DNA of 64,000 nt, from contig JBHGNT010000018.1 in NCBI GenBank assembly GCA_043228905.1, positions 13,144,001 through 13,208,000 on the forward strand, given 5' to 3'. Origin of the DNA: Azolla caroliniana. Taxonomy: Eukaryota > Plantae > Polypodiophyta. A program made the translations under genes and the position numbers. Positions 12,212-46,200 of this stretch are shown here, piece after piece. Within the stretch, counting starts at the first letter, position 1. Every line of letters begins with the position of its first letter. The notes under the pieces are model-generated. The model ran no database searches, had not been told where the DNA came from, and was given only the letters and a program-made list of their open reading frames with translations.

Positions 12212-13029
12212 TAATCGATATCATGATCTCACGTCAATACCCCTCTAGACTTATGAGATGAGGTTCAAGATCAGGTTACTATGGTAACACAAAGGTGTTT
12301 TAAAAACCATAGGGGTGGCAAATTAATGTCTTTCCCTGATCTCTATATCGATTTTTTCATGGCGGCTCCCCAAGGCTCAACCATGTATGTTCGCGTCATG
12401 AGTAGTTTATACATGAAGGAAATGTTAACAATAAACTATGTTTCTGTGCCCACGTATGTGGTTTCGGCTCTTTAAGTCCTATTATGAGGACCCCGAAGTG
12501 CACTTAGACCTCAAGTCTAAACAAGTGTTATAGTCATATGTATCAACGATATTGTATGGTCTTGGTCATATTTGAACTCGAGACCAAATGCATTAAACAC
12601 TTGAGCCAAATGTTTAATGTTTCATGCGTATAAGAGATATGCGAGGCATTTGCCCATATATGTTTTTTGAAAAGAAACATGGGTGAAAGCATGCGAGTGG
12701 AAACAATTAGCTATGTCCTTGACATAGCTAATTAGCTATGCAAAAAGCTACCATTGATAAATAGTCATTTTAGTAAAAAGCCATCATTAATAAATTAAGT
12801 ATGCAAAAAACTACCATTGAAAATACTAGAGTGTTTTAATTACATATGTAAATGAGTGCCATAAATGTGCAACATAAATTGATGTGTGCACCATAAATGT
12901 GTACCATAAATTATATATCGAATTCCTAGGTCCATTATGCATGATCCTTTGCCACATCACGTAGGCCATCTCTAGTTGAGTACTGTGGGTTAGTTGCTAC
13001 CACTGTTGCTAAACCCTATCGAGTCCACC

Positions 13030-13800
13030 TGCCGCCACTCTACACTGAGGGGCCGCTACTGTGCGTTCCAAGCATCATCAAAGAGCTGCTCAATCTGACG
13101 GGGTTCTCTTCTCTGTGACACTCTACACTCAGGGGCCACTACTGTGCATTCCAAGCATCATCAAAGAGCTGTTCAATCTGACGGGGTTCTCTTCTCTGTG
13201 CCACTCTACACTCAGGGGCCATTACTGTGCGTTCCAAGCATCATCAAAGAGCTGTTCAATCTGAGGGGGTTCTCTTCTCTGTGCCACTCTACACTCAGGG
13301 GCCATTACTGTGCGTTCCAAGCATCATCAAAGAGCTGTTCAATCTGAGGGGGTTCTCTTCTCTGTGCCACTCTACACTCAGGGGCCGCTGCTGTGCGTTC
13401 CAAGCATCATCAAAGAGCTGTTCAATCTGACGGGGTTCTCTTCTCTTTGCCACTCTACACTCAGGGGTTGCTACTGTGCGTTCCAAGCATAATCAAAGAG
13501 CTATTCAATCTGACGGGGTTCTCTTCTCTTTTCCACTCTCACTCAGGGGCCGCTACTGTGCGTTTCAAGCATCATTGGTAACTGTTCAATCTGACGGGGT
13601 TCTCTTCTCTTTTCCACTCTCACTCAGGGGCTGCTACTGTGCGTTTCAAGCATCATTGGTAACTGTTCAATCTGACGGGGTTCTCTTCTCTATGCCACTC
13701 TATTCTCAAGTGCCTTCTATGTGCGTTTCAAGCATCATCGGTAACTGTTCAATCTAACGGGGTTCTCTCCTCCATTGCCATCATTCTATACTCAGTTGCC
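13030..13800. repeat. Tandem repeat of about 83 bp, roughly 9 copies, decaying at the 3' end
   Basis: Recurrent ccactctacactcaggggccnntactgtgcgttccaagcatcatcaaagagctgttcaatctgacggggttctcttctctgtg; ORF-track starts are spaced 83 bp apart. Confidence 0.95.
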
Positions 13801-14115
13801 ACTACTGTCCAGTCCCGGGTTGCTTCCACATTTCGATTTGACGGAGTTCACTCATCCAACGGCAACATTCTACACTCAGTTGTTGCCATTGGTCGGTCTT
13901 GGATCGCCTCCTCAACTGTTGGATCCAACAGAGTGAAATCCTCTACTGTTCGGTCTTGGATTGCAATAACTTTTCTGTCTATTGATTATCTTGTGTATTG
14001 TTGTGTCTAATCTTGTGTATTGTGTGGAATATTTTTGTGTATTGTTGTTGCCCATAGCCATCTTTAATACTTGTTTTTTTTTCTGGAAATTTAGGGTTTT
14101 AACATTTCTAGCCAA

Positions 14116-16367
14116 ATGGAAGGGGAAGAAGGGTGTTTAGAATTACCCCTCAATGATCATAAGGATAGGGATGATGTTATCAGGACACAACAAGCCATAC
14201 GAAACTATTGGGCAGAAAAGAAAAGGAAACATCGTCAATTGTTGAAGGATACGAAAGCCACACTCAGTAAAGGTAAGGATAGTTTAGCTGAGAATGTAAG
14301 TAATGCGACTACTATCATAGAGAGAAAGGTTGTAGACTATTTCAATGTTCAAACCAAGCACATCAGCAATGAAGAAAAGAAGGTAGTACTTTATGGAATA
14401 TGTAATGATCCATCGATAAAGGACTTAGTTGATTGTGATGGTCTTAATGCAAACATATCATCTATTTTAGTAAATAATCTTCGTAATAGTTTCGTATCCA
14501 TGAGCAGGTCAGAAGATGATCTTGTCTTAAAAAGGTCTAGTCTAATGATGTTACTTAATAGTGATGTTGACGATATAAACATCAGTGAGCTATCTAAGGT
14601 AATTGGTGTTAGTAGAAAAACAGTGTACAATACAATGAACCGTATAATTTCCTCGGGTGAAGGAACTAGTCTATTAAAGCTAACTACAAGATGTAAGCCA
14701 ATGACACCCATAACATTTGAAATCAAGGATGTAATCACAATGTTTTGGACTAATGAGAGTAGGGTTTCACCCAATAAAAAGGATTTATGCAGGAAACGTG
14801 TTGGAAGAAATCAATACGAGGAGCATCCCATTCATCTTCTTGATGTACCTCAGGTATTTACATTTATCTCAACATTTGTTTTGACTCTACTCGGAAAGTT
14901 AATTAGCTCAGTTAGCAGAAAAGCTAATTAGCTTATCAGTTACATTTACCTCAGTTAGCTACTAGGATCGCTACTACATAGGTAACTAGCTACTCTCAAT
15001 AGTTACTACCATGATAGCTAATTAGCTATTCTCAATAGCTAATTTAGGTACTACCAGATAATTAGCTGTACTGCTAGCTAGTTAGCTATCATGGTAGCTA
15101 GTTAGCTATTTCGTTATTACCAGCTAATTAGCTACTAGGAAAGCTAATTAGCTACCATGATAGCTAATTAGCTACTATGATAGCTACTACATAGGTAACT
15201 GGCTACTCTCAATAGCTACTACCATGATAGCTAATTAGTTAGGATAGCTAATTAGCCACCATTATAGCTAATTAGCTACTAGACCAGCTAATTAGCTACC
15301 ATGATAGCTAATTAGTTACTAGGACAGCTAATTAGCCACCGTGATAGCTAATTAGCTACCATGATAGCTAATTAGCTACTATACCAGCTAATTAGCTACC
15401 ATGATAGCTAATTAGTTACTAGGAAAGCTAATCAGCCACCATTATAGCTAATTAGCTACTAGACCAGCTAATTAGCTACCACGATAGCTAATTAGCTACT
15501 AGACCAGCTAATTAGCTACCACGATAGCTAATTAGCTACTAGACCAGCTAATTAGCTACCATGATAGCTAATTAGTTACTAGGAAAGCTAATTAGCCACC
15601 ATGATAGCTAATTAGCTACTAGACCAACTAATTAGCTACCATGATAGCTAATTAGTTACTAGGAAAGCTAATTAGCCACCATGATAGCTAATTAGCTACT
15701 AGAGCAGCTAATTAGCTACCATGATAGCTAATTAGCTACTAGGACAACTAATTAGCTACTAGGACAGCTAATTAGCTACCATGATAGCTAATTAGCTACT
15801 ACGACAGCTAATTAGCTACCATGATAGCTAATTAGCTACTACGACAGCTAATTAGCTACCATGATAGCTAATTAGCTACTAGGACAACCAATTAGCTACT
15901 AGGACAGCTAATTAGCTACCATGATAGCTAATTAGCTACTACGACAGCTAATTAGCTACCATGATAGCTAATTAGCTACTAGAATAGCTAATTAGCTACC
16001 ATGATATCTAATTAGCTACTACGACAGCTAATTAACTACCATGATAGCTAATTAGCTACTACGACAGCTAATTAGCTACTAGGACAGCTAATTAGCTACC
16101 ATGATAGCTAATTAGCTACTAGAATAGCTAACTAGCTACTAGAATAGCTAACTAGCTACTAGAATAGCTAATTAGCTACTAGGATAGTTAGCTAGTTACG
16201 AGAATAACTAATTCCCCTTTATTACGCAGGTCGATTTATTTATTAGGTTCAAACGAATGCATCCAACTATCAAAGTTCAACTACGAACATTCGAGTCTCT
16301 TAAGCCACACTTTGTGAGACGCTTAAAGGATCGATACACATGTTGTTGCATTTACTCTTGTTGTTGA
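14116..16367 (+). pseudogene. Truncated Sola-type transposase N-terminus; exons 14116-14853 and 16230-16367
   Basis: A phase-0 GT..AG intron (14854-16229) gives ..FWTNESRVSPNKKDLCRKR..HLLDVPQ|VDLFIRFKRMHPTIKVQLRTFESLKPHFVRRLKDRYTCCCIY; HTH-like ISELSKVIGVSRKTVYN; no DDD catalytic domain. Confidence 0.72.
14900..16200. repeat. 20-bp minisatellite built on the perfect palindrome TAGCTAATTAGCTA, with 40-bp higher-order alternation
   Basis: Alternating tagctaattagctactagga and cagctaattagctaccatga units, roughly 50 or more, all inside the transposase intron. Confidence 0.97.
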
Positions 16368-16404
16368 AAGATACACCAACTTTGCTCAGGAATCGTTAAC
16401 TTAC

Positions 16405-18120
16405 TTGAAGCTTATCCAAATTGTAATCTGCAACAGTATTTACACCTAGAAGGTCCAGGTTCATTGAAAGAACCTGGATCTCTATTTGCAGTTCTATTTT
16501 ACGCTGGGGATCTAGTGGCCCCTCTAATTCAAGCTCCTGTTGCGCAACCTATTCCAGATAATGCTTGATTAGCACATTTTACCCGTTATTTATAACACAA
16601 TCACATACCAGCAAAACAATAGTTACTTGAATCTTATTTCTAATTGTTGTAACAGCAGAAGTAACTTTGCTCTCCATTGCAGAAGCCATTGTGGCTTTCT
16701 CTAAATCAGTCTTAAAAAATGCCAATGTCTCACAGGCTTCATGGACATTTTTTAGCATATAGCTAACCAATGTCTCACCTGTATCATCGACATTGGCTTT
16801 CCTTGGGTGTCGGTGTGGTGTATGCCCCCGGTCTTGCTGGGAGTCGGTAGTTGCATCAACGGCTGCCATGCTCCAAAATCTGTCTATTTTTTGTGCCAAG
16901 GTCCCCATCTTTCGGCATCTTTTTACCGATGCCTCACCATAGACTGCCCAAGCTACCCTATACATTTCAGGGTCTCTAGATTCCTTCGCTGTTTTGCAGT
17001 ACTCATATGCAAATGCTCTAGCAAATGAAACTGACAACTCATTGTTGACTGGGATCTCCTGATGAACTTTCTGGTGCAGTCTCATGCAGTCATCGTACAA
17101 GTCGGCTCGTACATGCTTCAGCTTGACCTTGCCTTTGACTCTAGGCATTGTATATACTGTCATCCAGTCTATATCACCGATCAATTTATCACTTAGGACA
17201 GCAGGGTCAACACCCTCGAGTGACAGACCATAGGTGTTGTGGAAGTCCTCCTTTGTCTCGCAAAATTTTGCGAAGTTTAGCACTCTCATATACGGAGGAA
17301 CGAGCCATCTGAAATATCATTTCAGAAATCAGAAATAGTGCAAAATCAGAATATGTGAGAATCAAAAACCCCAATCAACAACAACAAAAATGGTGCAAAA
17401 TCTTTAACTTAGCAAATCAGAAACCCTAATCATAATTTGTATTCAGAAATTTGAAATCAGAAACCCTAATCAAAATCTGTAATCAGAAGTTTGAAATCAG
17501 AAACCCTAATCAAAATCTGTAATCAGAAGTTTGTAACCAGAAACCTATTCAGAAATTCTAATTAGAAATTTATAATCAAAAACCCTAATCAGAAATTTCA
17601 ATCAGAAACCCTAATAAAAAATTTCAATCACAAACCGTAATCAGAAATCCTAAGCAGAAATTTATAAACAAAAACCCTATTCAGAAATTCTAATTTGTAA
17701 TCAAAATTTGTAACCAGAAACCCTATTCAGAAATTCTAATCAGAAATTTATAATCAAAAACCCTAATCAGAAATTTCAATCACAAACCCTAATCAGAAAT
17801 TTCAATCACAAACCCTAATCACTAAAGACAGGATTAAACACAAAAAAAGTAATATAAACACACCTGTTGCTACTCCCCGATTTGCGAGACATCCTTGTAT
17901 GGGACTCCAAGGACTTCGCCCTATTCGATTTTGGGGAAATATGAATCGGCACCAAAGTTCAGACAGTAGTCAAAAAGAAAAAACAAATGTTTGGGGTTTC
18001 TGTAACTGAAACATACCTGGACGATGATCGAGCGGGTTCTGTGTTGTAGCTCTCAATCTGCAATGTCGATTTTTTGCTGTTGCGGGAGCTACGTCTGCGT
18101 TCGTGCTCTGAGTACTCCAT
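16405..18120 (-). CDS. Four-exon gene of unknown function (about 330 aa) inside the DNA transposon, convergent to the transposase
   Basis: Exons 18120-18017, 17920-17864, 17308-16627 and 16548-16405; three GT..AG introns with matching phases (2,2,0); no stops; MEYSEHERRRSS..RWLVPPYMRVLNF..SFARAFAYEY..VAWAVYGE..KIQ|VAQQELEL..DKLQ. Confidence 0.75.
17410..17822. repeat. AT-rich degenerate tandem repeat rich in AAACCCTA telo-box motifs, in intron 2 of the minus-strand gene
   Basis: Repeated atcagaaaccctaatc and agaaatttcaatc units. Confidence 0.85.
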
Positions 18121-18868
18121 CTGCGTTCAAAATCAGACTTAGGCTAAACAGGAAATTGATGACATTGAAGTCGACCTTAGATGATGGTGATATTCCCCAA
18201 GTTCCACTACGTCTGAAACAGAAGTTCAAATATTTGAGTTTTTTCATAAATTAGTTTTTCAAATATTTGATTTTCCCACAAGAAAGACTAGCTAAACAAA
18301 TAGCTAATTAGCTATGGCCATTTTAGTAGCTAATTAGCTATAATAGTGTTTCCACTCGCATGCTTTTACCCACATATAGGTCAGGAGTCCTTATTTCCCC
18401 CTCGTTTACCACAAACTTTGTTGGTACATTACGTAACCTCAAGTCTCATAATTACGATGGCATACGCCAAAGTGCAACCTAATGGTCAAGCCAAATGAGC
18501 CTTCTTTTCGTAGTAGGCCCTGGTGGCCCATCACATGGTTATGTCATTACGAATGCCTCTCGTAAGAATGATCTCATGGTGGCATCGTATCCATGTAACG
18601 AGGGAGGGATGTTGGATATGTGTATCATAGGAGCGACCTCACATGAACTGGGTCAAGCCCTACCTTCTCGACATCATTGTGGCTATAGGCATTTGTTTAC
18701 GTAATAAAATCGAAGTCACCAACGGGAATGTCAACAATTAAAAATTGTTGAAAAAAAGGGATGGTGACAACGTCATTCTCACAAAAATGTGAGGACAGCC
18801 ACCAAGATCCTTTCCTCGAAAAGGAAAACATTTGATATAAAGATCACGTAATATCAATTATATGGTCG

Positions 18869-19286: not shown

Positions 19287-21409
19287 TTACCTACTAGTTC
19301 GTCTAGTCATTTCCTACTGATGGGAGTTAGTTCCCTTTAATCGTTGAGAAAGACCGACTGTGGAATATACAATATTGCGGAAAAACTGAAACACAACAAA
19401 TACATGAATACAGAATTTTACGTGGAAACCCTAATCGGGGAAACCATGAGAACAGAGATTCCACTATACACAAGAGAGTACAAAAAACAGTTACAATCTT
19501 CTCTGATACACACAAAGGATAACCCGCTTAGGGTTCTTAGCAAGTTCATTGAACTTTGTTGTCGCTCTCTCTCACGCTCACACACTCTCTCTTCTCTGTC
19601 GCGGTACCCTACAGAGGCTCACAAACTATTTTGTTCAACTCACATACGATGTTTGCCCTAAGTGTATTTATACTTATACACTGTATGTGCTATTTACAAA
19701 TGTAGCCACTTCTACTGTCATTACCATAATAAGAATAATAGTTATTTAATCGACTAATCGACTAGTCCACTCCAGTGTTGACTCTCCAGTCGGCCTGACC
19801 AATTGGTCGTGTCTTCAACTTGGACTCTCCCCATCTTCGACTGTTGGCACTTGGCCTGACCAGTCAACTGCTCCCATAGGAGGGACATATTCCTAACAAA
19901 CTCCCCTTCACTCCTATGGGTGGAGTCGCTTAGTCCTGCCCTCTATCTACAGACTCCGAGTTTTTCCATTGGTAGGTTCTTTGTCAGCATGTCAGATCCA
20001 TTGTCGTCAGTATGGATCTTCACAAGGGTGAACTCCCTCTCATCCACTTTCTCCCGCAACCAGTGATACCTTCTCTATATGTGCTTTGTTCAAGAGTGGT
20101 ACACAACATTCTTTGCTAGATGTATGGCGCTTTGGCTATCACAATGAAGCAAGAACTCCCTTTGCTTCATCTCCAACTTGCTGAGGAAATTTCTCATCCA
20201 GATTAGCTCTTTGTCGGCCTCTACCACTGCCATGTACTCTGCCTCTAGGGTCGACAAAGCCACAGACTTCTGCAGTCGCAATTGCCACGACACTGCTCCC
20301 CCTACATAGGCCATCCCATGCCCCGAAGTGGATCTACTTGTGTCTACATCCCCCGACATGTTCGAGTAGGTAAACCCTTCGAGCATGGGTTTTCCAACAC
20401 CATACCTAAGGCACACACCCAAGGTGCATTTTAAGTACATGAGTATCCATTTTACAATTGCCCAGTGTTCTTTGCGTGGATTACTCATGTATCGGCTTAC
20501 TGCTCCCACAACAAAAGCTATATTTGGCCTTGTACAGACCATAACATACATTAAACTACCGACGGTTGGGGCATACAATACTTTCTTCATCTTAGCCTTT
20601 TCTTTCTCCCCTCTCGGGCATTGCTTGGCATTCAACTTGTAGTTGGTCGGCAACACAAAGCTGACTAACTTTGCCACTAACATGTTGAATCTTTCTAGGA
20701 TTTTCGCCACGTATTTCTCTTGTGACCACCACAACACTTTTTTAGTTCTATCTCGAACTATGTGCATCCCTAATATCTGTTTTTCCGGTCCAAGATCTTT
20801 AATGGCAAACGACTTTCCTAATGCTTTCTTCAAGCTCACGACCTTCTTCGTGTCGTGTCATCCACATATAATAAGAGAATCAAGAAAACCCCTTCTTCAT
20901 ACCTTTTGACAAACACATAATGATCAACCTGTGTTTTCTAGAACCGATGTTCCACTATGAACGATTCAAACTTCTTGTACCATTGGCATGGAACTTGTTT
21001 CAACCCATACAAGCTTTTCTTCAGTTGACACACTAGCTTCTCTTTTCCCTTCTCCACAAAGCCTTCGGGCTGCTGCATGTAGACTTCTTCATCCAGCTCC
21101 TCGTGCAAGAATGTTATCTTGACATCCAACTATTCGATCTCCAGATCTATGCTCGCAACAATGCTTAGAACAGTTCAGATGGATGTCATCTTCATGACTG
21201 GTGCAAATATTTTGTCGAAGTCGACACCCTTTTTCTGTTGGAACCCCTTCACCACAATGCGGGCTCTAAATATGGGTGTGTTAACGTCTCCAGTCTTCAC
21301 CTTCTAGATGTTGGGAGACAGGTCCCTCCGGATGGGAAGGGAGAAGAACAGTGCCGATGAACAAACTCGGCCGAGGCCGATAGGCCGAGGACGAAACCGT
21401 ATGAGGTGG

Positions 21410-21705
21410 ACCCGGCTACGGAGAGCCGGATGATGCAGACCTGGTGAAGACCGGATGAGGAGTACCCGGCTACGGAGAGCCGGATGATGCAGACCCGGTA
21501 TGAAGACCGGATGAGGATTACCCGACTACGGAGGGCCGGATGATGCAGACCCGGTGAAAACCGGATGAGGAGTACCCAGCTACGGAGAGCCGGATGATGC
21601 AGACCCGGTGAAAACCGGATGAGGAGTACCCGGCTACAGAGAGCCGGATGATGCAGACCCGGTGAAGACCGGATGAGGAGTACCCGGCTACGGAGAACCG
21701 GATGA
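21410..21705. repeat. 54-bp tandem repeat in the Copia LTR U3, about 5.5 copies; also at 26348-26643 and 27471-27628
   Basis: Unit ggagagccggatgatgcagacccggtgaagaccggatgaggagtacccggctac. Confidence 0.93.
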
Positions 21706-22190
21706 AGAGACATATTCGTAAATATGTTTTCTGATAGTGCATCGAGGCTATATTTGTAAATAGCCGAAAAGTCATATTAGTATAAATATGACTTAGGGCA
21801 AACTAATATATTGTTGTTGTCATTTTCTTGTTGGTGCAAGAAGAATAGAAAGTACGTAACGTTGTACAGAGAGAGAGAGAGAAAGAGGTTGTTGCCTCTG
21901 TTGTAACCGCCGCATGTGGCGAAGATCGTGAGTCTGAGGTCGTTGCCTCCGTGAACTCACTGTTTTGTACATTCTTTCATAGTGACAGTTTGCAGCCTAT
22001 GGGCTGCCGTGGTTTTTCCCCTAATTTGGGGTTTTCCACGTAAACCTCCTGTGTAATTTTTCCTCTTCTTTGTGTCGCGTCTTATTTCCCGTTTTCTATG
22101 TATCATTCCAAGCTTGGTTGTGGCCGAGCGTTGCGCATAAGGAGCGTTGAGTTCCCGTCAAGTGGTATCAGAGCGAAACGACACAGAAAT

Positions 22191-25100
22191 ATGGACGAAT
22201 CGTTTGGCGGCATGTTCAAGCTCACCGGCTCCAACTATTCGGTATGGAAGTCGAAGATGAGGGACATGCTCGTGGTTAAAGACCTCTGGCTGCCGGTTCA
22301 GTTCAGGGACAAGAGACCGGACAAAATCGACGCCGCGATATGGGAGGTGATGCACATGAAGACAACGGCGTACATACGGTGCTTCATCGACATGAGCGTG
22401 TACAGTAACTTCAATGAAGAGAGCAAGGCTCATGAGCTTTGGGAGAAGATCGGCATAATGTTTCAGAACAAAAATGCTGTCAATCAGGTGTCGGTATTCC
22501 GGAAGCTAGTAAGACTCCGGTACCAAGATGGCTCTAGCATGGCGGAGCACATGAATGCCTTCCAGGGGCTGATCCACTAGGCAACTTCATTGGAAGTACC
22601 TCTCGCCGATGAGGTACTAGCGCTACTCCTGCTCGGTTCCCTCCCGGATAGCTGGGAGACATTGGTTGTCACTTTGGGCAACGCCGGGCCGGAAGGAAAG
22701 CGGTTATCCCTAGCAAGAGTAAAGTCGAGCTTGCTAGATGAGGAGGCGCGTCGGAAAGATAAGGATACGAGCTCCGACTCCAAAGCGCTCCTTACCGAAT
22801 CGGAACGCGGAAGACATAGAAACCGTAGTCCCCAGAATCGGGACAAGTCGGGGATACGGTCAAAGTCAAGGGGCAGGCCCACTTGCTTCTATTGCGGCAA
22901 GCCGGGTCACTTCCAAAAGAACTGTCGGCATTTCCGTAAAGACAAGGAAACCGACGGTACCGATTCGAAGCAAACCCCGGACCGGAACGGTAAAGACCGG
23001 AGGGGGCCAGACCGGAAGGGAACGACGGCAATCGCGGCAAGTGAAGAAGAGTTGATGCTCATCACCGAGGAGTGTGAGATAAACCTTGCCGGCGACGAGA
23101 TGACCTGGGTGGTAGACTCCGGAGCGTCGTTCCACCTTACCCCGGACCGGAAATGCTTCTCATCCTACTCAGCCGGTGATCACGACTGTGTCCGGATGGG
23201 GAATGAAGGTACATGCCGAATTGTCGGCATAGGAGACGTGTGGCTGTCGACACCAACCGGATGCAAGTTGCTGCTGAAGGATGTCCGACACGTTCTGGAG
23301 GTTCGTTTGAACCTGATATCAACCGGTCGGCTAGATGATGAAGGCTACACGGGTGGCATCCAGAACGGTGTCATGAAGTTCAGCAAAGGGAGCCTGATTG
23401 TGGCTCGGGCCCAGAAGGTCAACACACTGTACCTGATGAATGCTCGGTTATGCCCGGAAGAACTGAACGTGGCATCCGACACTGCCGGTGAGTTGTGGCA
23501 CAAGAGGCTGTGTCATATGAGCGAGAAGGGGATGAAGAGGCTTGCAGAAGACAACCTCATTCCAGTGAAGAACGTGCACTTAGAGAAGTGCACTGATTGT
23601 CTGGCCGGTAAGCAGAACCGGACCTCCTTCCGACCAAGGCCACTGATGAGACGTATTGCACCACTAGAGTTGGTGCATATGGATGTGTGTCAGGTAGACA
23701 CAAAGTCACATGCCGGAGCGCAGTACTTCGTGACGTTCGTAGATGACCACAGCCGGAAGCTGTGGGCCACACCGTTGAAGACGAAGGATCAGGTGTTATC
23801 CATCTTCAAAGAGCTCCACGCGAGAGTGGAAAGAGAAACCTGCCGGAAGCTGAAGGCGGTTCGAGCAGATAACAGAGGAGAGTACCGGGGGCAGTTCGAG
23901 GATTACTGCCGCTCGAAGGGAATCCGGCTCGAATTTACCGTGCTGAAGACGCCGGAACTAAACGGACTGGCCAAGAGGATGAACCAGACCATAATGGAGA
24001 GGGTCCGGAGTATGCTAGCACATGCAAAACTACCCAAGAAGTTTTGGGCTGAGGCATTGTCGACGGCGACATACATGATAAACAGATCACCCTCAGTACC
24101 CTTGGACGGAGACACGCCACAGAGAGTTTGGACCGGTAAGGAAGTATCCTACCGGCATCTGAAGGTGTTCGGGTGTCTCGCGTACGTGCATGTAGCTAAG
24201 GACCGGAGAGGAAAGTTAGACCCAAAGACCCGGCCATGCATATTCCTCGGTTACGGCGACGATGAGTTCGGCTACCGAGTGTGGGACCCGGTCGACAAGA
24301 AGGTGTTCCGGAGTCGAGATATTATCTTCATGGAGGACAAGACGCTCGCTGACTGGGAGTCGGAGAAAAAGATAATGAACTCCGAGTCGACCGGTAAGGA
24401 TCGATTCTATGATGAGCAGACCCAACCGGCAAGAGACCGGTTAGCACTCGACGAACCAGCCGGTTACGGTGAGGATACCGAACAGGCTGAAGAAGAAGTA
24501 GAAGAAGCTGAAATCAGAACCGGACAAGACCCCGAATCGGATTCGGATGAAGAGCAGATGGATGAGCCGGTCACCGAAGCCCAGAGACGGAGATATCCTC
24601 TCAGAGAGAGAAGGGCCCCCCGGAGATTTCCGGATGCAGAGCATGTTCTGCTGACCGATGAGGGGGAGCCGGAAAGCTTCGAAGAAGTGAAGGAAGACAC
24701 CCACAGCCGAAAATGGTTAAGTGCCATGCAGGATGAGATGGATTCCCTGCATGAAAACCATACGTACGAATTGGTGGAGTTGCCAAAAGGAAAGCGGGCA
24801 CTCCGAAATAAGTGGGCGTACAAGTTGAAACCGGGAGATGCCGGCAACCCCCCGAGATACAAAGCCAGGATCGTGGTGAAGGGGTTCCAGCAGAAAAAGG
24901 GCGTGGATTTCGACGAGATATTTGCCCCGGTTGTAAAGATGACCTCCATCCGGACGATGCTGAGTATAGCGGCAAGCATGGACCTTGAGGTAGAGCAGTT
25001 GGACGTGAAGACGACATTCCTTCACGGCGACCTCGAAGAGGAGATCTACATGCAGCAACCAGAAGGATTCGTGGAGAAAGGGAAGGAGCACCTGGTATGC

Positions 25101-26236
25101 CGGTTGAAGAAGAGCCTCTACGGGTTGAAGCAGGCCCCCCGGCAATGGTACCGGAAGTTCGATTCCTTCATGACCGATCACGGGTACCACAAGACACAAG
25201 CCGATCACTGTGTGTTTGTGAAGAAGTTCGAAGGAGGCGACTTCCTAATACTCCTTTTGTACGTGGATGACATGTTAATCGTCGGAGTGACCAAGTTAAA
25301 ATACGGATGTTGAAGAAGGCTCTCAACTGGACCTTCTAAATGAAAGACTTGGGTCCGGCAAGAAAGATGTTGGGGATGCACATCATCCGGAACCGGTCAA
25401 AGAAGCAATTATGGTTGTCACAGGAGAAGTACGTGACAAAGGTGCTTCACCAGTTCAACATGTCAGAAGCAAAACCGGTCGGATCGACACTTCCGGCAAA
25501 CTGCAAGCTATCCGGTAAGCAAAGCCCGAGGACGAAAGCAGAGAAGACGGATATGATGAAGATTCCATATGCCTCTGCCGTCGGGAGCTTGATGTACGCA
25601 ATGGTGTGTACCCGACCGGATATAGGATACGTAGTCGGAGTGGTGAGCCGGTTCATGAGTAATCCCAGCAAGGAGCACTGGAACGCGGTCAAATGGATAC
25701 TCCGATATTTGAAGGGAACCTCAAATATGTGTCTCCGATTCGGCTCCGGAAAACCTCATCTGGACGGTTTCACCGATTCGGACATGTCGGCTGATGTGGA
25801 TACCAGCTGGTCTACATCTGGGTATGTAATGACATATGCAAGGGGAGCTGTTTCGTGGCAGTCGAGGCTGCAGAAGACGGTTGCATTGTCAACCACGGAG
25901 GCGGAGTACATGGCAGCTGTGGAAGCCAGCAAGGAAATTTTATGGATGAAGGACTTCATCGGAGAGCTCGGTATACGACAAGAGGAATACCGACTCTATT
26001 GCGACAGTCAAAGCGCCATCCACCTTGCTAAGAATGCGGCCTACCACTCTCGGACGAAGCATATCCAACGAAGATATCACTAGATCTGGGAAAGAGTAGA
26101 CGACCAGGAGTTCGCACTGACGAAGATCCACACGGCCGAGAACGGGTCAGATATGCTGACCAAAGTGCTGACACCCGACAAGCTAGATGCATGCCGGAAG
26201 CGGATCGGACTGGTAAGACACCCCATGCCGGAGTGA
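22191..26236 (+). pseudogene. gag-pol: Copia gag-pol polyprotein with few lesions (stops at 22578, ~25337 and 26081; frameshift near 25285)
   Basis: CFYCGKPGHFQKNC, WVVDSGASFH, LWHKRLCH, VRADNRGEY, LYGLKQAPRQW, LLYVDDML and YCDSQSAIHLA. Confidence 0.96.
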
Positions 26237-27470
26237 AGGGGGAGTTTGTTGGGAGACAGGTCCCTCCGGATGGGAAGGGAGAAGAACAGTGCCGATGAAC
26301 AAACTCGGCCGAGGCCGATAGGCCGAGGACGAAACCGTATGAGGTGGACCCGGCTACAGAGAGCCGGATGATGCAGACCTGGTGAAGACCGGATGAGGAG
26401 TACCCGGCTACGGAGAGCCGGATGATGCAGACCCGGTATGAAGACCGGATGAGGAGTACCCGGCTACGGAGGGCCGGATGATGCAGACCCGGTGAAAACC
26501 GGATGAGGAGTACCCAGCTACAGAGAGCCGGATGATGCAGACCCAGTGAAAACCGGATGAGGAGTACCCGGCTACGGAGAGCCGGATGATGCAGACCCGG
26601 TGAAGACCGGATGAGGAGTACCCGGCTACGGAGAACCGGATGAAGAGACATATTCGTAAATATGTTTTTTGATAGTCCATCGAGGCTATATTTGTAAATA
26701 GCCGAAAAGTCATAGTAGTATAAATATGACTTAGGGCAAACTAATATATTGTTGTTGTCATTTTCTTGTTGGTGCAAGAAGAAGAGAAAGTACGTAACGT
26801 TGTACAGAGAGAGAGAGAGAAAGAGGTCGTTGCCTCTGTTGTAACCGCCGCCTGTGGCGAAGATCGTGAGTCCGAGGTCGTTGCCTCCGTGAACTCACTG
26901 TTTTGTACATTCTTACATAGTGACAGTTTGCAGCCTGTGGGCTGCCGTGGTTTTTCCCCTAGTTTGGGGTTTTCCACATAAACCTCCTGTGTAATTTTTC
27001 CTCTTCTTTGTGTCGCGTCTTATTTCCCGTTTTCTATGTATCATTCCAAGCTTGGTTGTGGCCAAGTGTTGCGCATAAGGAGCGTTGAGTTCCCGTCAGT
27101 AGACCCACTTGTTTCTGAGTGCTCTCTTACCTTTTGGTAGTTCTACCAGGTCATAGGTGTAATTTTCATGCAAGGAGTCCATCTCATCTTGCATTGCACT
27201 CTGCCATTTCTGCTTGTGCTTGTCGGCAATGGTTTCTTCATAGCACTTAGGCTCACCTTCATCGGTCAAGAGGATGTATTCACTAGCACATGTCATCGAT
27301 GCTTTCTTTTCTGTAAGTGGATCTCTCCTTCCATTTTTTGTCGGTTCCGGTTCGGATATCTCTATCGACTCTTCTCCCAACTCGGGTTCATATGTGTCCA
27401 TTGATCATTGAGGGTTAGCCGATTCCTACTTGTATTCCTCGATCGACTTCTATGGGTCTGCCTTGGCCGA

Positions 27471-28088: not shown

Positions 28089-30990
28089 TGTTGGTAGGCC
28101 AACTCGGATTCGGCTGTGCCAACTGGGTGTCTCTGAACAGCCAACTGTGTCGGTTTGACTAGTCTTAAGTAAGTGGGAGTTGATTGGGAAATCGTTTTTG
28201 ACTTCTGTTGCTTCCAGTCCTCAATTGTCTTGTTTTCCAAGAAGACAACGTCCCGACTCCTCACCACTTTCTTGCCGACTAAGTCCCATAGCTTGTAGTT
28301 GAACTCGTTCTCTGAGTTTCCCATCAATATTCATGGTTTCAACTTACTGTCAAGCTTCAACCTCTGATCCTTAGGCACATGCATATATACTAGACATCCG
28401 AACACCCTCAGGTGTCTGTAGGAGACATCCTTTCCTTTCCACACCCTCTATGGGACATCAAATTTCAATGGCACTGAGGGAGACCTGTTGATAAGATAAA
28501 CAACCATATACATCGCCTCAGCCGAGTACGATTCAGACATCTTGGCATGCAACAACATGCTCCTTACTCTCTCCATAATCGTTTGTTTCATCCTCTCTAC
28601 AAGCCCATTCAACTCATGGGTCTTCGACACTGTATATTCAATTCGAATACCTTGGTCCTTGTAGTATTCTTCAAACTGCCCTCTATATTGACCATCGTTG
28701 TTTGCTCATACAGTCTTCAACTTCTGACCCGACTCTCGTTTGGTTCTTGCATGAAACTCCTTGAACATTGACAGTACTTGATCCTTTGACTTTAGTAAGA
28801 AGGCCCATGTCTTCCAACTATGGTCATCAATAAACATTACGAAGTACTGTCCACCTCGATGTGATGGAGCATTTACATAGCACACATCTGTGTGTTCTAG
28901 TTCCAGTGGCACTTCTCTTCTTGTCGGTGGTCTTGCATGGAATGCAGCTCTGTTCTCCTTTCCGACTAAATAATCGACACACTTCTCCAAGTGTACTCCT
29001 TTCATTTTTGGGAGAAGTTCCTGATCGGCTAACAAATGCATTCCCTTCTCACTCATGTGGCCGAGCCTTTTATGCCATAACTCTCCACTCGAGTCGGCTG
29101 CCACATTTGCTTCCGACTTGCACAATTGGGCATGCATCATATACAATGTGCCCTCTTTCTGTGCTCGGGCCACTATGAGGTTTCCTTCACAGAACTTCCA
29201 ATTGCCGTTTCGAAAGCTACCACTGTAGCCTTCAAGTCGATATCAGATTCAGTCTGATATCGGGGACATGTCGAACTTCCTTCAGGGTCAGTCGATAACA
29301 TGTCGACATCATCAAGCTTACACTCCCAATGCCAGCTATCTTGCACTCACCATTATCTCCCATCCTTACATAGCCATGGTCCACGAGTATGTAGGTCGAG
29401 AAGCACTCTCTTGATAGAGGTTTATGGAAAGATGCACCTGAGTCGATTACCCAGGTACACTCCTCACTTGCAAGATTTGTGCTTGCCTGCTCACAGATGA
29501 CCATGATCTCCTCTGCACTTGTAGCTATGGCCAATGTGCCCTTTTCTTCAGGAATCTTCTTGGGTTCGACAACATTACCAACAACTTTGTCCTTCTTCAT
29601 GTGTCAACTGTCCTTTTGGAAGTGTCTAGGCTTTCAACAATAGAAACATGTCAGTTTGCCTTTGGACTTCGACCTAGCTTGGAACTTGTCCCTTCTTTGT
29701 GGACTTCTTTGTTGGTTTCTTCCTCTCTTGGTAAGTTAAGCTAGGTTTGACTACGACTGGGACAAGACACCCTTGTCTTTCCTTCTTTTCTCCTCGTTCA
29801 AGATTCTTGTCTTTACAACTTGAAGAGATAGGTTCTCTTCTTGACACGAGGTGCTGAGAGTCACCACTAGATTCTCCCACTTTTCCGGCAGGGTACACAG
29901 TAGCAGATTGGCCTGTATTACATCTTCAAGGGGAAACTTGGTTGCAGTAAGTCAATTCACATACCCCATGAATGTGCTTACATTCTCCACTATGCTTTCT
30001 CCATCCCTATATTTCAACCTCATAATCTTTCTCATCAAAGATGTTTTGTTGAGGGCGTTCTTCCTCTCATATAGACCTGACAACTTCTACCACATCTCGT
30101 AGGCTTTTGTGTCGTTCGCCACATTTTGAAGGACACTTACATCGACGCACTATCTGATAGTGGCCACCACCTTTTTGTTCAGAAGTTTCCATTCAGACTC
30201 TAATACCCTTGTGGGTATTTCTGCTCTGTCTATGGGCTCGTACATGTGTTTGACTATGAGAAGGTCTTCCATCTTTATCTTCTAATCGCATAGTTCTAAG
30301 AGTTTAGAACTATCATGCCTGGGAAGCCACTCACACCTCCTTCCATCTTTCACCTTTGCTCTGATACCAGGTTGATGGGATGGGATCGTAAATCTGTCGG
30401 TTGAAGATATGTTGAGATACACAGCTCGAAGTAGAAAACAACAAATGGACAAAATACATAGTGCACACTGTTTTACGTGGAAACCCTAAATGGGGAAAAT
30501 CACGGTGTCGTGCCTTTCGGCTCCGGATCGTTGCGTGAGTCGGGTGGGAACCACCGAGGTTTTTGACTAGGAGGAAGAGGAATACAACTTAAGGCTAGTT
30601 ATGAATAGTGGAAAGAGAAGTAAGATAGCAATCTCGTGAATCCCACGAGTTTAGTGTATTTAAAACAATATTTAGATTACAAGAGTAATTTAGATGGCAA
30701 AATTCGTGAATCCCACGAATATATTAGATTGATCAATCCTTGTATATTAATCAACAACCATATACATATTTCTCTCCTCCTTATATAAAGATGGAAGAGG
30801 CTAAGCATGGCTTCATGCTTTTTCACCAAAAGTGTCCATGCACACTAAATGTGCATGTGATGTTTTGTCATTTCCTAAGTATAGGGCTCATGCACGCTAG
30901 ATGTGCATGAGTCACTTTTAATGTCACGTGTAAATAAAATATTGACACCCTAAAGAATACATGATTTTTACCTTTTAATAAAGGTATGTG

Positions 30991-33778
30991 TGTTGGCCGG
31001 TCAGAAGAGCACAGATCTTGGAGAAACACACCCCCGGATGGACCCCGCAAGAAGCAGAACAGCAGGGGGAAGGACCATCCCGACAGCAACAGGAACCGGC
31101 AACAAAGGCAAAACCGGCAGGTAAAGGCAAAGGGAAAGCGGTCGAGGAGGAACCGGTAGCGCGCAAACCAATCCATATAACGCTGCGACGGCCGGAACCG
31201 GAACCAGAGGTCTCTAGACAAAAGGTCCGTCTGGTAACTGCACCGGAGGAGGAAACTGAAACAGAAGACTCATCTGAACCACTGGTAAGACTCCCAGCAA
31301 GACAAGGTCGGGAGAAACGGGCGAAAGGACCGGCTCCACCAGTGGACAGAACTCAGCAGAGGGCGCAAGGACCATCTCCAGTAGCCGAGGCGGAAACAGC
31401 ACCGGAACCCGTACCCAGGGAAGCAGCACCGACACCGGTTGGGCCGGACTTCAGAAAACCGGTCATCCCAGAGAAGAAGAAGGAACGAGCGCCGGAGCCG
31501 GAGCCAGAGAAGAGGCCGGAAAATCAGCTTGGCTTAAGTGAGCAAGGCCACCCCGAAATCGGAAGAACAAAGCCACAATGGCTGAGATGGCTTTCGGAGC
31601 AGTTATCGGGAGTAGCGGACCAGTTAGAGAAAGAAGAAACGTGTCGGCAACAGCTGACGCATACAACAACTCAGGAGTTGGTCGCGCTCCGAACACAGAT
31701 CGAGGAAATGCAAGGGGAGCTGTTGCAGGCAAGGGAAGGAATTCAACGAGCACAAGCTGTCACCGAGCCGGTCGGGACAACAAGGAAGCAACCAGAACCA
31801 GAACCGGAACCAGTAGCCTTGCAAACCGGCCCTGAGACCGAAAAAATAATAGAAACCTTACGAGAGGAGTTACAAGCTCAGGAGGCATTAAGGGAAAGAG
31901 AAAGGGAGCAGCGGAAAGCGGTGGAGGATGACAGACGAAAAATGGAAGAAGGCCTCCGGAAAGGCCGAGCCGCTAATGACCGACTGCAAGAAGAAAAAGA
32001 GAAGCTGCAGAAGGAGAAGGACCGACTACGTCGACATGCCGAACAAGAGATAGAACGACTGCAGGAAGAACTCCGACAACAGAAGGACCGGGACGATCGG
32101 TTAAGAGCTCAGACAACCCGACGCCTGAAGCAGAAGACGGAGGACTTCGACCGTCTCTACCGAGATCACAAGCAGGCCGAGTCGGACAACAAAAAACGAG
32201 CAGCAGACTACGACCGGCAAATAGAGAAGCTGAAAGAGCAGCTCAAAGAAACCCGATTAGACCTGGCTAAGGCGATGGATGAGGTCAGTGCCAACAAGGA
32301 AGCATTGTCGACGGAAATAGCCCAAGCAACGGAGAGAAGGAAGGAATTAGAGGCGCTAAGGCGGGAAAAGCTGGACCTGACCAAGATCAGGAATGAAGGA
32401 AAGGAAAAATCGACCTTCAGGATCAGCAAACTGCAGAGTACCTATGAAAAGCAGAAAGCAGATTACGAGGCCCAGGCTCAGATAATGGCCGACATTATAA
32501 AACGGGCAAGGAAGGAAAAGCAGGAAGCTTATGCGCATGCTAAGGCAGGAGTTGACCGGATCAAGCTCATCATGTCAGGATGGAGTACCCGAGCTCAGGC
32601 AAGTATCAACGAAAGTACGGAAAAGCTATGGAAGGAGTGGTCACAACAGGCAGCCGAGCTGCAGACACTCCGAGCGGATGCCGAGAATCGGAAGAAGACC
32701 GGCGACAGGTTCTACAAGATGGATGAAGAAAGTATCGTCGCCATTCGGGAGGAATTGTCGGAGGATTTCTACACTTTAGCAGAAGAACACCTCAAAGAAA
32801 TTCGAGGGTTGGTAGAGAGGTTGGATGACGGGCAGCTCGCAACTCAGTTGGAGTTGGAGAGATACGAGCATGACCGGTTACGACAGGAAGCTAAGGGAAG
32901 AACGACGCCAACCACTATTGGTGAGGGAACGCGACCGGCTGAAGATGAACCAACCGACACCGAACAACCCCGACGAGGAATACCTGAAGACGAACTTGAA
33001 GAAGACCAGGAGCGGACCGATGCCGGAGAAGAAGAAGAGCTGAGACCGGAAGACACCAGGGCAGAGGAAGGAGTCATATCAAGTCGACCAGTCGAGACCG
33101 GAGAAAGCGACACCGGTAACAGAACAGAGCCAGGAACGGAGGGAGAACAGGAAGAACCTGGACGAAGCGGTGAGGAAGCACCGGCACCACGGAATCAAGC
33201 AGAGCCGGAGTAGAAAATTTTTACGGAACAGCCTACCCAACAGGAGGTCGGAGACAAGGCAGGCAAGGAACAGGAACAGGAGGAAGAAGCACCACTTGAC
33301 ACTATCGAGCAAAGTGTGCTCGATATTTTGGAGGAAGACTGAGGCCGGGAGTGGATTCGAAGTGCAAGGCACTTTCCCACGGGCGTGCCATGTGTTGGCC
33401 GGTCAGAAGAGCAAGGACAAGTGGGAAGGCGGAATCGGATCGGATAATAGGAAGTAATAGTAGAATTATTATTCGGAGGGACGGATTCGGTACAGTTGTA
33501 CCGATCCGGATCCGAACCGATTCGGATGTCGGTTGCCTAAGCGCACCGATTGTAACCTTGACGGATGCCTATAAAAGGATCCGATGATTTGTAAAGTGTT
33601 TTGACGGAAGTAATACAATAGTAATTATTGTGTATTTATCTGTATCTCGTATTGTTTGCCGTCCGTGCTTAATTGTAATCATCTTATGCGTATAACCTAG
33701 CATCCAATCCTTACCACCCCTTTGGAGAAGTGTCGGATAGACACCTGTGTTGAGGCTAGTCTGGCCAGACAGACAACA
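30991..33778 (+). mobile_element. Deletion derivative of an Athila/OTA-like Gypsy: 21-bp 5' LTR stub, accessory ORF and 3' LTR (33393-33778)
   Basis: TSD ATGTG at 30986-30990 and 33779-33783; tgttggccggtcagaagagca occurs at both 30991 and 33393. Confidence 0.9.
31012..33213 (+). CDS. Retrotransposon 3' accessory ORF: P/E-rich linker plus long coiled coil; N-terminally truncated but stop-free
   Basis: 741-aa open frame; conserved QWLRW and YKMD.ESIV.I.EELS motifs shared with copies at 36540-38170 and 52400-54580. Confidence 0.8.
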   Translation, partial: QILEKHTPGWTPQEAEQQGEGPSRQQQEPATKAKPAGKGKGKAVEEEPVARKPIHITLRRPEPEPEVSRQKVRLVTAPEEETETEDSSEPLVRLPARQGREKRAKGPAPPVDRTQQRAQGPSPVAEAETAPEPVPREAAPTPVGPDFRKPVIPEKKKERAPEPEPEKRPENQLGLSEQGHPEIGRTKPQWLRWLSEQLSGVADQLEKEETCRQQLTHTTTQELVALRTQIEEMQGELLQAREGIQRAQAVTEPVGTTRKQPEPEPEPVALQTGPETEKIIETLREELQAQEALREREREQRKAVEDDRRKMEEGLRKGRAANDRLQEEKEKLQKEKDRLRRHAEQEIERLQEELRQQKDRDDRLRAQTTRRLKQKTEDFDRLYRDHKQAESDNKKRAADYDRQIEKLKEQLKETRLDLAKAMDEVSANKEALSTEIAQATERRKELEALRREKLDLTKIRNEGKEKSTFRISKLQSTYEKQKADYEAQAQIMADIIKRARKEKQEAYAHAKAGVDRIKLIMSGWSTRAQASINESTEKLWKEWSQQAAELQTLRADAENRKKTGDRFYKMDEESIVAIREELSEDFYTLAEEHLKEIRGLVERLDDGQLATQLELERYEHDRLRQEAKGRTTPTTIGEGTRPAEDEPTDTEQPRRGIPEDELEEDQERTDAGEEEELRPEDTRAEEGVISSRPVETGESDTGNRTEPGTEGEQEEPGRSGEEAPAPRNQAEPE

Positions 33779-43295: not shown

Positions 43296-46200
43296 CCCAA
43301 GCCGTCACTTGCCCGTTCTCCGAGACGTATTCTCTTGCGTCTTTGCAAGGGTTGCTTGTCTTCCTCGGCTGTGTCTTTTTCTTGTGCAGTATCTTGGTGG
43401 CCGTCGTCTATTGGTCGTATTTGCATCGAGTCCTTCTGCTTCAACTTAATTATATGTGTCTTCATCAGTTTCGATACTGCTCCCCTCATTACGACTGGGG
43501 GTGATCCTACTTCTAGAGATCCCTCCCCTTGCCAATTGGTTGCTTGTCGGGCCATGATCTGTTGCTGTTTTGACTATTGCGGCGTTACCTCTGCCCTCTT
43601 CTTCCTTTTTGCTTTAATGGTCAGTGCTAATATTGTCAGCCACTAGGGTATTGCCAGCCATACCTTCTTGTTGTTCGTGACTGCCGCAATTGCTATTAGT
43701 AGTGCATCTACCGTGATAACGCTCCAATCCACCTTCAACCCTTCATAGGTGGCAATGATGAATCTGGCTCTATTCTTTGGCATGGGTGCACAAACCTGTA
43801 TTCCAATAGCAACTTTGCGACTTCCTTAAATAAAGGTACATCGGAACCACCCTGTGTTCGGTAAGCCTTGTTCGCAATGGAAAAGTCTCTGAAGTATTCG
43901 ACCAAAATGTCGGTTTCAAGGTTCTCAATGAACCACAAATCTCCAGTTTGGAGTTCTATGGCCGTCTGCACTATGGCTCCGGAGATTCCATCCACATCGT
44001 TTTTCTTCGCTATTTCCTCCAGTTCTGAGTGTGGTGGAGCTTCTACTACCCGAATAAACCCTTCTAGGCCGTGCTTCTGCAACCACTCTTTCAATTTTGT
44101 TGACAACTCCATAGGTCCCGTGTCTGGCTCGTGTGTGTTGGTGCTGATCTGATCTTCCGGTCCGATGTGTGTACTCCTATTCTCTCTTTTGTTGTGTGCT
44201 CCTATGAATTTTCTATCTCTGAATGAGACACCTTCGTTGATTTTGGGTTTTTCTATTCCCATCGATATGTCTCTTCTTGTCCATGCGTCACCGCATCCTT
44301 TTTTTCCTCGATTGACATGCTCACTATCGTCCCTATACATCGTGACTATTTATGAAGTCATCACGACGTTTTGTGGCTAATTATGGGACCATCATGACAT
44401 TACGTGGGCAACTTCTGCCGAATTCCGATTGCTTTCGGATACGGTTCGTTTCCCTACGACTACCGTATTTCGGTTTATTTCCTCATTATTCTCCTTGCTA
44501 TTTGTCACCTTTTTTTGGTTTTCCTTCTTGTGTTCTTTAAACAGGTCGACCGACATTGACCCCCTATATGGTTTGAGCCGGAATCCATTTACCCATTGCT
44601 CCAAAATGTCTCTAGCCAATGTCCCTAGATGAAAGGTTCCATTGAACTCATCTATAATCCAGTAGGGTCCAGTCCACCAGAACCTTGATTTTCCCAGCAT
44701 TGGCCCCATCCGAGTCTGGAATACCAAAACAACCTTGCCAATTCCGAATTGTTTTTCATTCCCCTTCTGGTGTCTATCCACGAATTGTTGGCCGGTTAGG
44801 CCAAATTATGAAAGGGGAGTCGGTTTTGGCAGTTGTAATTAGATAAATTATGATAATTATAAGATCGAACGGATGGACCCGGAATTGGTATGCCGATCCG
44901 GATGTGGGCCGGTTTGTAGCCGGTTGCCGGTTGGCACCGGTTTGTAGCACAACTGGATACCTATAAAAGGATCCAGAGATGACGTAATTGATAACGGATA
45001 ATTAATAGAGAGATGATGTGTCTTTACGTATTGTGTATCTTGTTAATACCGTTCTGTGCTTAATGTGATTATCATACGCGTGTATCAAGTTAATCATTCC
45101 GGATAGTGACCGGGAAGGATCGGTCCTGTATTACGGTCTGCACATTCCTTACCGTACCACCCCTTTGGTTAAGTGTTCTAAAGGGACACCCTGTGTTAGC
45201 GGCTTGTCCAGCCCGGTGAAAACACAGTTTTGGCGACCACGATTCCTGCAAAAACTGCAGTGAACAACGGGGGAATGGATGAATAGACTAACAAACGACA
45301 CAGTAGCCGAGCGAGCGAGAAGACTTGTCATGAGACTACAGAAGCGGTAGGCTTACCAGCAGGCAATGGAAGAGATCTGGTTGGATCGGTCTTTTTCCAG
45401 AGTGATTCGGCAGGTCGCTGAGGAGTCACTCCGATTGCAACAAAACCACCACCCGGACGAAGGAAGTAGTATGAGCAGTCTGAAGGAAGCGTAGTCCATT
45501 CTGCAAACACTTGCCACAAGAGAAGACGGTTCAGAAGCGTTGTTAGCCATCGAATTGGATTCGGACGACGAACACAACGTCCAATTGAATTATCGTAGTA
45601 GCCACATATCGACCCCAGACGACCCGGAAGACGACGAATTGGACCACATATCGACATCGGAGCCGACAACAACGAAACCGGAAGCTCCAGACAAAACGAC
45701 CGGCACGGAACACCAAGAGGAGGAATGAGTTCCAACACCACAACCCGAGCCACCGACGGAACAGGAGGACCGAGTTCCGACACCGGCCCCAACACCACAA
45801 GAAGAAGACGATACAATGTCGTACCAATATCCGAAGTTTCGGGATGACTCAGATGCGGAAGCCCATGTATACGTGTTTCTCCAAACTTGGGAGGTGAATC
45901 ATGTATCCCAACGACTACACGATGCAGAGGTAGAATGATCAAAAATTCTGAAATTCGGCATGAATTTGGAGGGGCCCGCGGCACATTGGCACTCCAAGCA
46001 CCTTCCCGGCAGCATCGCCACATTTGAGGATTTAAAGACTAGATTTCTACGCTTCTTCCACAAACATGTGGATCAAAGAGAGATTGTTGGCCAATTTTAT
46101 ACGACACGACGGGACTCGTCTGAAACCATTTAGCAGTTTGTTATCCGGTTCCAGACGATGCATAGTCAACTCACTAGAGCACCGCCAGAAGCTGAAGCGA

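Follow-up and report, generated by a model that had tools for sequence, protein, structure and literature searches.

Transposons of the Sola superfamily with a second gene beside the transposase have been published before, and they are the first comparison for the element described here, which occupies positions 12681–18371 of a 64,000-nt stretch of the Azolla caroliniana genome (GenBank assembly GCA_043228905.1, contig JBHGNT010000018.1, positions 13,144,001 to 13,208,000; hereafter the window) and is very probably an internally deleted copy of a Sola2-type element with a dedicated partner gene. Sola2-Fanzor1 of Dictyostelium and Polysphondylium shares with the Azolla family a second gene, an AT-rich target-site duplication (TSD) of 4 bp and the existence of copies with most of the transposase deleted (PMC3627910); its second gene encodes a TnpB-like Fanzor protein, whereas the partner gene of the Azolla family encodes an unclassified core and a RING-like finger. 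Fanzor cargo was rejected as the identity of the partner, because no Pfam or PDB match to TnpB or Fanzor (RuvC, C4 finger) was found in its exons up to exon 5. Sola1-1_Ec32 of Ectocarpus also has an accessory gene, encoded on the other strand from its transposase and suggested to act on the element that carries it, but Sola1-1_Ec32 is a Sola1 element of 21.5 kb whose accessory protein is a ParB-like/methyltransferase fusion of 1104 aa (PMC12477816); neither a ParB-like nor a methyltransferase domain was detected in the window element.

Outside Sola, the VANDAL elements of Arabidopsis combine an accessory gene with a short motif arrayed in tandem in introns and terminal non-coding regions, to which the accessory protein VANC21 binds (PMC5735166). 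VANDAL elements are, however, Mutator-like elements (MULEs), the VANC21 motif is non-palindromic, and binding and demethylation by VANC21 have been proven by experiment, whereas the Azolla system is known from sequence alone; no sequence homology to VANC was found in Pfam or among the named matches of our partner searches. TnpA of the Spm/CACTA elements is likewise a second element protein, which binds motifs close to the termini and serves both the transposition and the activation of its element (10.64898/2026.08.24.746577). It has tandem helix–turn–helix (HTH) domains derived from the transposase and is seemingly restricted to flowering plants, whereas the partner has no detected HTH and a RING-like end. 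Red algal Plavaka elements carry accessory genes beside inverted-repeat arrays (10.1101/2025.02.11.637652). Lastly, the tail-to-tail layout of two genes is shared with Harbinger elements, which have 3-bp TSDs (PMC12477816), and an accessory protein, MURB, is found in MuDR. An earlier reading of the window from its sequence only had already judged PIF/Harbinger a misfit, and the 4-bp TSD supports that judgement; we rejected this identity on TSD length and on the lack of a DDE_Tnp_4, Plant_tran or Myb/SANT match. No Pfam match to the Harbinger or MuDR transposase families or to Myb/SANT was found in the window proteins or in eight homologues, the catalytic region being absent from the window copy.

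The sequence-only reading had also taken Sola2 to be described mainly from animals and as a single-transposase element. Sola elements with two genes are already published, however, as set out above, and Sola2 is not new to plants: among the class II superfamilies of cypress, Sola2 is described as the most abundant (10.64898/2026.07.23.736688), and ‘Sola’ is reported from Ceratopteris (2,739 counts; PMC6890710) and, as Sola1, from Physcomitrella (PMC9033089). In a set of 1,007 plant genomes, Ginger and Sola together contribute 9 of the 3,203 active clusters (PMC12973397), and the available portions of PMC4455052 and PMC5753468 merely list Sola1 to Sola3. We found no report of a Sola2 element with a RING-type partner in the literature searched, outside which lay Repbase Reports, most subscription papers and some supplements. 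Precedents exist for the two-gene architecture but, as far as this literature extends, not for the partner family or its RING-like end.

Ends, transposase and internal deletion

The terminal inverted repeats (TIRs) had been described as 25 bp long with GGG..CCC ends, flanked by a 4-bp ACAT duplication, and this description holds. The two TIRs are identical at 24 of 25 bases and read GGG inward from both ends of the element, in agreement with the 5'-GRG termini carried by Sola2 TIRs. Published dictyostelid Sola2 elements have short TIRs that also start with G, and the Sola2 TSD is 4 bp long and AT-rich (PMC3627910). At up to three mismatches the TIR pattern matched the whole window at these two ends only, and none of 100 shuffles gave two matches. 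Prokaryotic genomes and viral contigs held no match to the TIR pattern. The empty site, in which 12676 is joined to 18372 with four shared letters, was present in contigs of two of four DNA runs (X7 and X10, two contigs each); because these contigs contain a single ACAT, the TSD is real. As all 30 bins of the region were covered by contigs, the element belongs to a multi-copy family. Aligned contigs in three DNA runs numbered 5,039, 7,326 and 10,163 and were spread over every identity class, although these counts take in repetitive flanks and depth does not equal copy number. One contig of run X20 joins 12743 to 18334, positions close to either end of the element, and hints at a very short derivative resembling a miniature inverted-repeat transposable element.

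The spliced plus-strand transposase fragment proposed from the sequence was recovered: joining 14116–14853 to 16230 gives 288 transposase residues in frame, and a stop follows after three foreign residues. Judged by eye against the published Sola2 alignment (PMC3627910, Additional file 10), the only Sola alignment used, the protein follows the Sola2 N-terminal motif order (F...SR..P..KD, LL, F..L[RK]P) up to CxCxxH. Together with the TSD and the TIR ends, these motifs bear out the assignment to a Sola2-type plant element. The only Pfam signal in the transposase was a sub-threshold HTH at residues 143–181 (E 5.5e-5); Pfam offers no model for Sola domains (PMC5751038).

A phmmer search with the transposase returned 178 relatives at an E value of 0.001 or better. 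Most of the 150 listed stop where exon 1 stops, and the intron is therefore shared. Five of 20 relatives looked up bear an organism name, all of them hypothetical proteins of Adiantum nelumboides, and the gene models of this fern cross the junction of exons 1 and 2 as predicted for the window; these relatives by themselves point to a fern as the likely host. Among 151 homologues listed, FW...SR..P..KD occurs in 40, F..L[RK]P in 11 and CxCxxH in seven, most of the others ending at the intron. The CxCxxH motif had been attributed to the window copy; it is a property of the family, but the window copy is cut just before the His, which is supplied by the loose ends of other copies. A single homologue of the 151 (P0171), aligning to both window exons (28%, E 8e-14 for exon 1; 46%, E 5e-13 for exon 2), reaches DFAENY and QEIQS of the Sola2 catalytic domain but stops short of the motifs that come later. 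The 16 partner-gene loci described below showed no catalytic motif, a search for long transposase homologues (432–2000 aa) gave no match among 1217 candidates, and P0171 as a query found no locus in viral contigs. The family differs from described Sola2 elements in its fixed-site transposase intron, its palindrome arrays and its convergent, multi-exon partner gene.

An internal deletion near 16355 had been suspected of removing the catalytic domain, and contigs of the DNA runs confirm it. On the two sides of the junction, their loose ends begin at 16355 and at 16352; the former carry the CxCxxH motif onward, including its His, and the latter match intron 4 of the partner gene as found in two other loci (L001 and L011). 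As TTAC is common to both sides, these loose ends point to one deletion with a 4-nt microhomology that took the 3' parts of both genes (Table 1). The window copy cannot encode a working transposase. The second protein of 331 aa is a stump, since the deletion also cut the partner gene and the RING-like exon was lost, a truncation that the sequence-only reading had missed.

Table 1. Features of the Sola2-type element, in window coordinates
Feature	Position	Strand	Evidence or remark
Left TSD copy, ACAT	12677..12680	.	Single copy in empty-site contigs of X7 and X10
Left TIR, 25 bp	12681..12705	+	TIR pattern search
Left subterminal palindrome	12726..12737	.	
83-bp tandem array, 9 copies, upstream of transposase	13034..13772	.	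No exact palindrome
Transposase exon 1, 246 aa, start codon inferred	14116..14853	+	Weak HTH at residues 143-181; Sola2-type FW...SR.SP.KKD motif
Transposase intron 1, GT-AG	14854..16229	+	Skipped in X20; same splice site in Adiantum gene models
Transposase exon 2 remnant, 42 aa	16230..16355	+	Ends within CxCxxH; catalytic domain gone
Deletion junction, 4-nt microhomology TTAC	16352..16355	.	Transposase exon 2 joined to partner-gene intron 4
Partner intron 4 remnant	16352..16404	-	GT donor at 16404; exon 5 deleted in window copy
Partner exon 4, 48 codons	16405..16548	-	Heptad-like pattern by eye
Partner exon 3, 227 codons	16627..17308	-	Conserved core without a family match; helices predicted with low confidence
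Partner intron 2, 555 nt	17309..17863	-	AT-rich 13-bp repeats; 8 telo-box motifs (AAACCCTAA)
Partner exon 2, 57 nt	17864..17920	-	Basic and Ser-rich
Partner exon 1	18017..18120	-	Arg/Ser/Lys-rich; donor conserved, start codon uncertain; skipped-intron contigs in X20
Two right subterminal palindromes	18302..18339 (18302-18313, 18328-18339)	.	
Right TIR, 25 bp	18347..18371	-	Pattern search; 2-3 mismatches upstream of partner gene in 6 loci
Right TSD copy, ACAT	18372..18375	.	

The partner gene and its element-borne origin

Joining 18120–18017, 17920–17864, 17308–16627 and 16548–16396 gives 331 aa without a stop, as had been predicted for four minus-strand exons. The last three codons (16404–16396) are read-through into intron 4, where other copies splice to a fifth exon. 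Sixteen metagenome loci carrying the gene (L001–L016) were compared with the window copy. AG before and GT after the exons are kept in most loci that cover a junction, with single-base exceptions in L011, L012 and L013. The true start of the protein is uncertain, because the ATG at 18120, which keeps its frame in L012 but has a stop just after it there, has mutated in L011 and lies in another frame in L003. An RNA check of the predicted junctions had been proposed: contigs of X20 skip 96, 555 and 78 nt at partner introns 1, 2 and 3, as well as the transposase intron, X20 being RNA by guess only and its pieces, about 95% identical to the window, being related copies. Of the runs that contain the stretch, none is recorded as RNA. 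No splice joints appeared in X18 or X21 among the further runs aligned, X22 gave no aligned contig, and none of the 15 joints listed for the DNA runs, which had 188 more, lies at a splice site. The intron 3 joint alone proves little, since this intron is missing from the DNA of L008 and from the divergent protein P0008. Divergent subfamilies without it (L008:655–1320 and P0008) suggest intron gain or loss within a transposon family.

The fifth exon follows the GT at the position of 16404 in the loci long enough to include it (L001, L002, L004, L005, L008, L011 and L016), and the palindrome-rich stretch comes after it in those whose sequence was viewed. In L001, L004 and L005 its Cys/His spacing, C-x2-C...C-x-H-x2-H-x2-C...C-x3-C, provides eight candidate ligands in a RING-H2-like arrangement. 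A PDB sequence search with exon 5 gave ten matches, seven of which are named RING-finger or E3 (ubiquitin ligase) proteins or At5g66160, a RING-H2 protein (best E 0.042). GT follows exon 5 in L001, L002, L005 and L016, and further partner exons may lie beyond it; nothing recognisable by eye as a sixth exon was seen in the tails of L002, L007, L011 and L016.

The core of the partner matched no known family in the databases searched. It had no Pfam match, its profile gave a single match in the PDB sequence search (E 0.39), and two tries at the ESM Atlas yielded no usable match. Structure prediction, suggested earlier as a check, gave only low-confidence helical models: two AlphaFold2 models, with mean predicted local distance difference test (pLDDT) scores of 45 and 46, agree only on helical content, and Foldseek with the second found no match at an E value of 0.001 or better. 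The helical core holds a basic patch.

That the second gene is a dedicated, element-borne accessory gene had been proposed from the window alone, and the TIRs and the selection on the gene uphold this. Eight loci reach 1.06 kb or more beyond exon 3 on its upstream side, and six of them have a TIR (two to three mismatches) about 0.8–1.0 kb upstream of that exon, at five distinct insertion sites. L008, with 55% aa identity, ends in a reversed 33-bp match to the junction of transposase exon 1 and intron 1 (E 8e-8), so that the convergent layout is repeated in a divergent copy; it is the one locus of 16 with transposase sequence, most of the others stopping in or before the repeat arrays. By the Nei–Gojobori method, the ratio of non-synonymous to synonymous substitution rates (dN/dS) for exon 3 was 0.40–0.45 against near copies and 0.18–0.28 against distant ones, with dS of 0.6–1.2 between subfamilies; it was 0.06 for exon 2, 0.24 for exon 4 (against L003) and 0.32 for exon 5 (L001 against L005), and some of these loci are collapsed high-coverage contigs in which private mutations are hidden.

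These data bear on whether the element, in the way of Pack-type elements, captured its second gene from the host or carries it as a neutral passenger. Many host genes of plants encode RING fingers, two of the eight loci with enough flank (L001 and L009) have no TIR, and the homology searches depended on shared words and length, the partner profile search covering 73–546 aa only. However, exon 1 or exons 1–2 are missing as well from the two loci without a TIR, which look truncated or chimeric, all 55 matches of the profile search among 7,998 scored candidates are European Nucleotide Archive proteins without a Pfam domain, none being a named plant gene, and dN/dS stays near 0.2 across subfamilies at dS up to 1.2, with splice sites kept. 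Plain host-gene capture was rejected on the TIRs upstream of the gene, the selection and the lack of a named plant gene among the profile matches, and capture or passenger status in any form is very improbable. In its behaviour the partner gene resembles a component that the element has long retained rather than a fresh capture. Two outcomes would have spoken against the sequence-only reading, a transposase match to another superfamily, and a second gene that is missing from other copies and matches a captured host gene; neither was encountered.

Two loci showed other neighbours. In L001 (671–2603), open reading frames (ORFs) with PPR repeats adjoin the 5'-truncated, TIR-less partner gene, which may reflect chimerism of the contig or an insertion close to a gene of the host; in L012 (977–1291) and L013, the element lies about 3 kb from an RSN1_7TM (calcium-dependent channel) gene.

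Palindrome arrays and the proposed role of the partner

A 12-bp palindrome, AGCTAATTAGCT, is confined to the non-coding parts of the element. All 39 exact copies in the window lie inside the element and none in its exons, and shuffles give no copy. One is near the left end, two are near the right end, and 36 lie in the transposase intron, which contains an array with a 20-bp period (about 54 units, 15122–16213). Between four and nine copies are present in each of L002, L005, L011 and L016, nearly all of them behind exon 5. The arrangement resembles that of the VANC21 motif in that a short, element-specific motif is arrayed in non-coding parts, and arrays recur in these four other loci. A second, independent deletion, in L008 (1800–2374), seemingly fuses the array behind exon 5 to transposase intron 1, and from this fusion the palindrome arrays may be recombination hot spots. 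The 83-bp array that precedes the transposase varies in copy number, several of its units being skipped by contigs of other runs.

The telo-box AAACCCTAA is also over-represented, with 13 copies in the whole window against 0.61 expected; eight are in partner intron 2 (17421–17818) and one is just upstream of the transposase (14091–14099). It is present in 13 of the 16 loci. Telo-boxes are bound by plant TRB proteins, and the element may recruit a host factor through them.

Our data are consistent with a model in which the partner is a self-activator of the element, binding the palindrome and bringing a predicted RING finger to act on chromatin or silencing proteins there; we give this reading a probability of about 0.4. 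Under this model, the full-length transposase would excise and insert the element via its TIRs, and the window copy, which probably arose by a microhomology-joined deletion, likely during aborted gap repair, would be mobile only in trans. The basic N-terminus of the partner would direct it to the nucleus, and the helical core, going by the low-confidence predicted helices, could bind the palindrome as a dimer. The predicted RING finger might then ubiquitinate or recruit chromatin factors at the palindrome, in the manner of VANC or Spm TnpA, and the outcome would be that family members are kept expressed and mobile against host silencing.

The tail-to-tail layout of the two genes, the long-term purifying selection on the partner and the palindromes adjoining both TIRs would also suit a transposition cofactor of the kind seen in MURB and the second Harbinger protein, which would bind the transposase or the element ends, be needed for excision or insertion and have no role in silencing. 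In MuDR, MURB binds to MURA, and heritable insertions require the two proteins (PMC12973397). A cofactor is perhaps not required by Sola2, however, as each animal Sola2 transposase stands as one protein in the available alignment (PMC3627910). End recognition has no need of intronic arrays of 36 motifs, and the RING-like finger suggests a regulatory role. Animal Sola2 elements are not known to carry a second gene. We regard a pure cofactor as unlikely, though a serious competitor.

Several observations weigh against the self-activator model. The transposase has a weak HTH of its own and the palindrome lies within 70 bp of both ends, so that the transposase may itself be the palindrome binder, while no DNA-binding fold was found for the partner in Pfam scans or in the two AlphaFold2 models. 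A transposase alone can activate its own copies, as reported for AtMu1 (preprint 10.64898/2026.08.24.746577). The RING-like Pfam matches of exon 5 are below cut-off (E 0.03–0.5), its last ligand pair is C-x3-C and not C-x2-C, and L002 has no such pair. Splicing is supported by one run of guessed RNA status and from related copies, and a full-length copy with both genes intact was not recovered among the loci collected.

A further explanation has the transposase as the palindrome binder and makes the partner a diffusible, E3-like protein without DNA binding, which would either degrade a host silencing factor or control transposase turnover. The weak HTH of the transposase, the RING-like exon, the lack of a DNA-binding fold for the partner in Pfam and the transposase-intrinsic activation reported for AtMu1 all suit it. 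However, conservation in the partner is strongest in the helical core, which holds the basic patch, rather than in the RING exon (dN/dS of about 0.2 against 0.32), and such a protein has no known substrate. We consider this doubtful, to much the same degree as a cofactor role, and retain self-activation through the palindrome as the working model.

Surroundings and significance

The element is surrounded by debris of long terminal repeat (LTR) retrotransposons, and its immediate flanks have no second copy within the window. Two 850-bp repeats, 98% identical and with 54-bp tandem units (21309–22160 and 26247–27098), lie around a Copia polyprotein (22581–25310) and mark a young LTR element. A purine-rich ORF of 743 codons on the plus strand (30982–33210) has no Pfam match; with similar short ORFs at 51626–52444 and, on the minus strand, 43738–44349, it may represent the extra ORFs of Gypsy elements.

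The family is easily mis-annotated, as both of its proteins fall under Pfam cut-offs and the transposase is a ‘hypothetical protein’ in fern gene models. Those transposon proteins for which anti-silencing is proven belong to MULE and CACTA elements of flowering plants (PMC5735166; 10.64898/2026.08.24.746577), and a 2025 preprint names VANDAL as the sole transposon known to bind and modify its own sequence (10.1101/2025.02.11.637652). Against this background, it is conceivable, if speculative, that fern Sola2 elements own a sequence-addressed, ubiquitin-based anti-silencing system, in which a novel protein family would read the palindrome and bring RING E3 activity to remove or rewrite repressive chromatin. 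If true, such a system would have originated independently of VANC, TnpA and the ParB-methyltransferase cargo, and would constitute a ready-made, motif-targeted chromatin effector. The partner and the palindrome represent a concrete pair of protein and DNA with which to ask whether anti-silencing arose again in seed-free plants, and the same pair bears on whether ubiquitin can be its effector.

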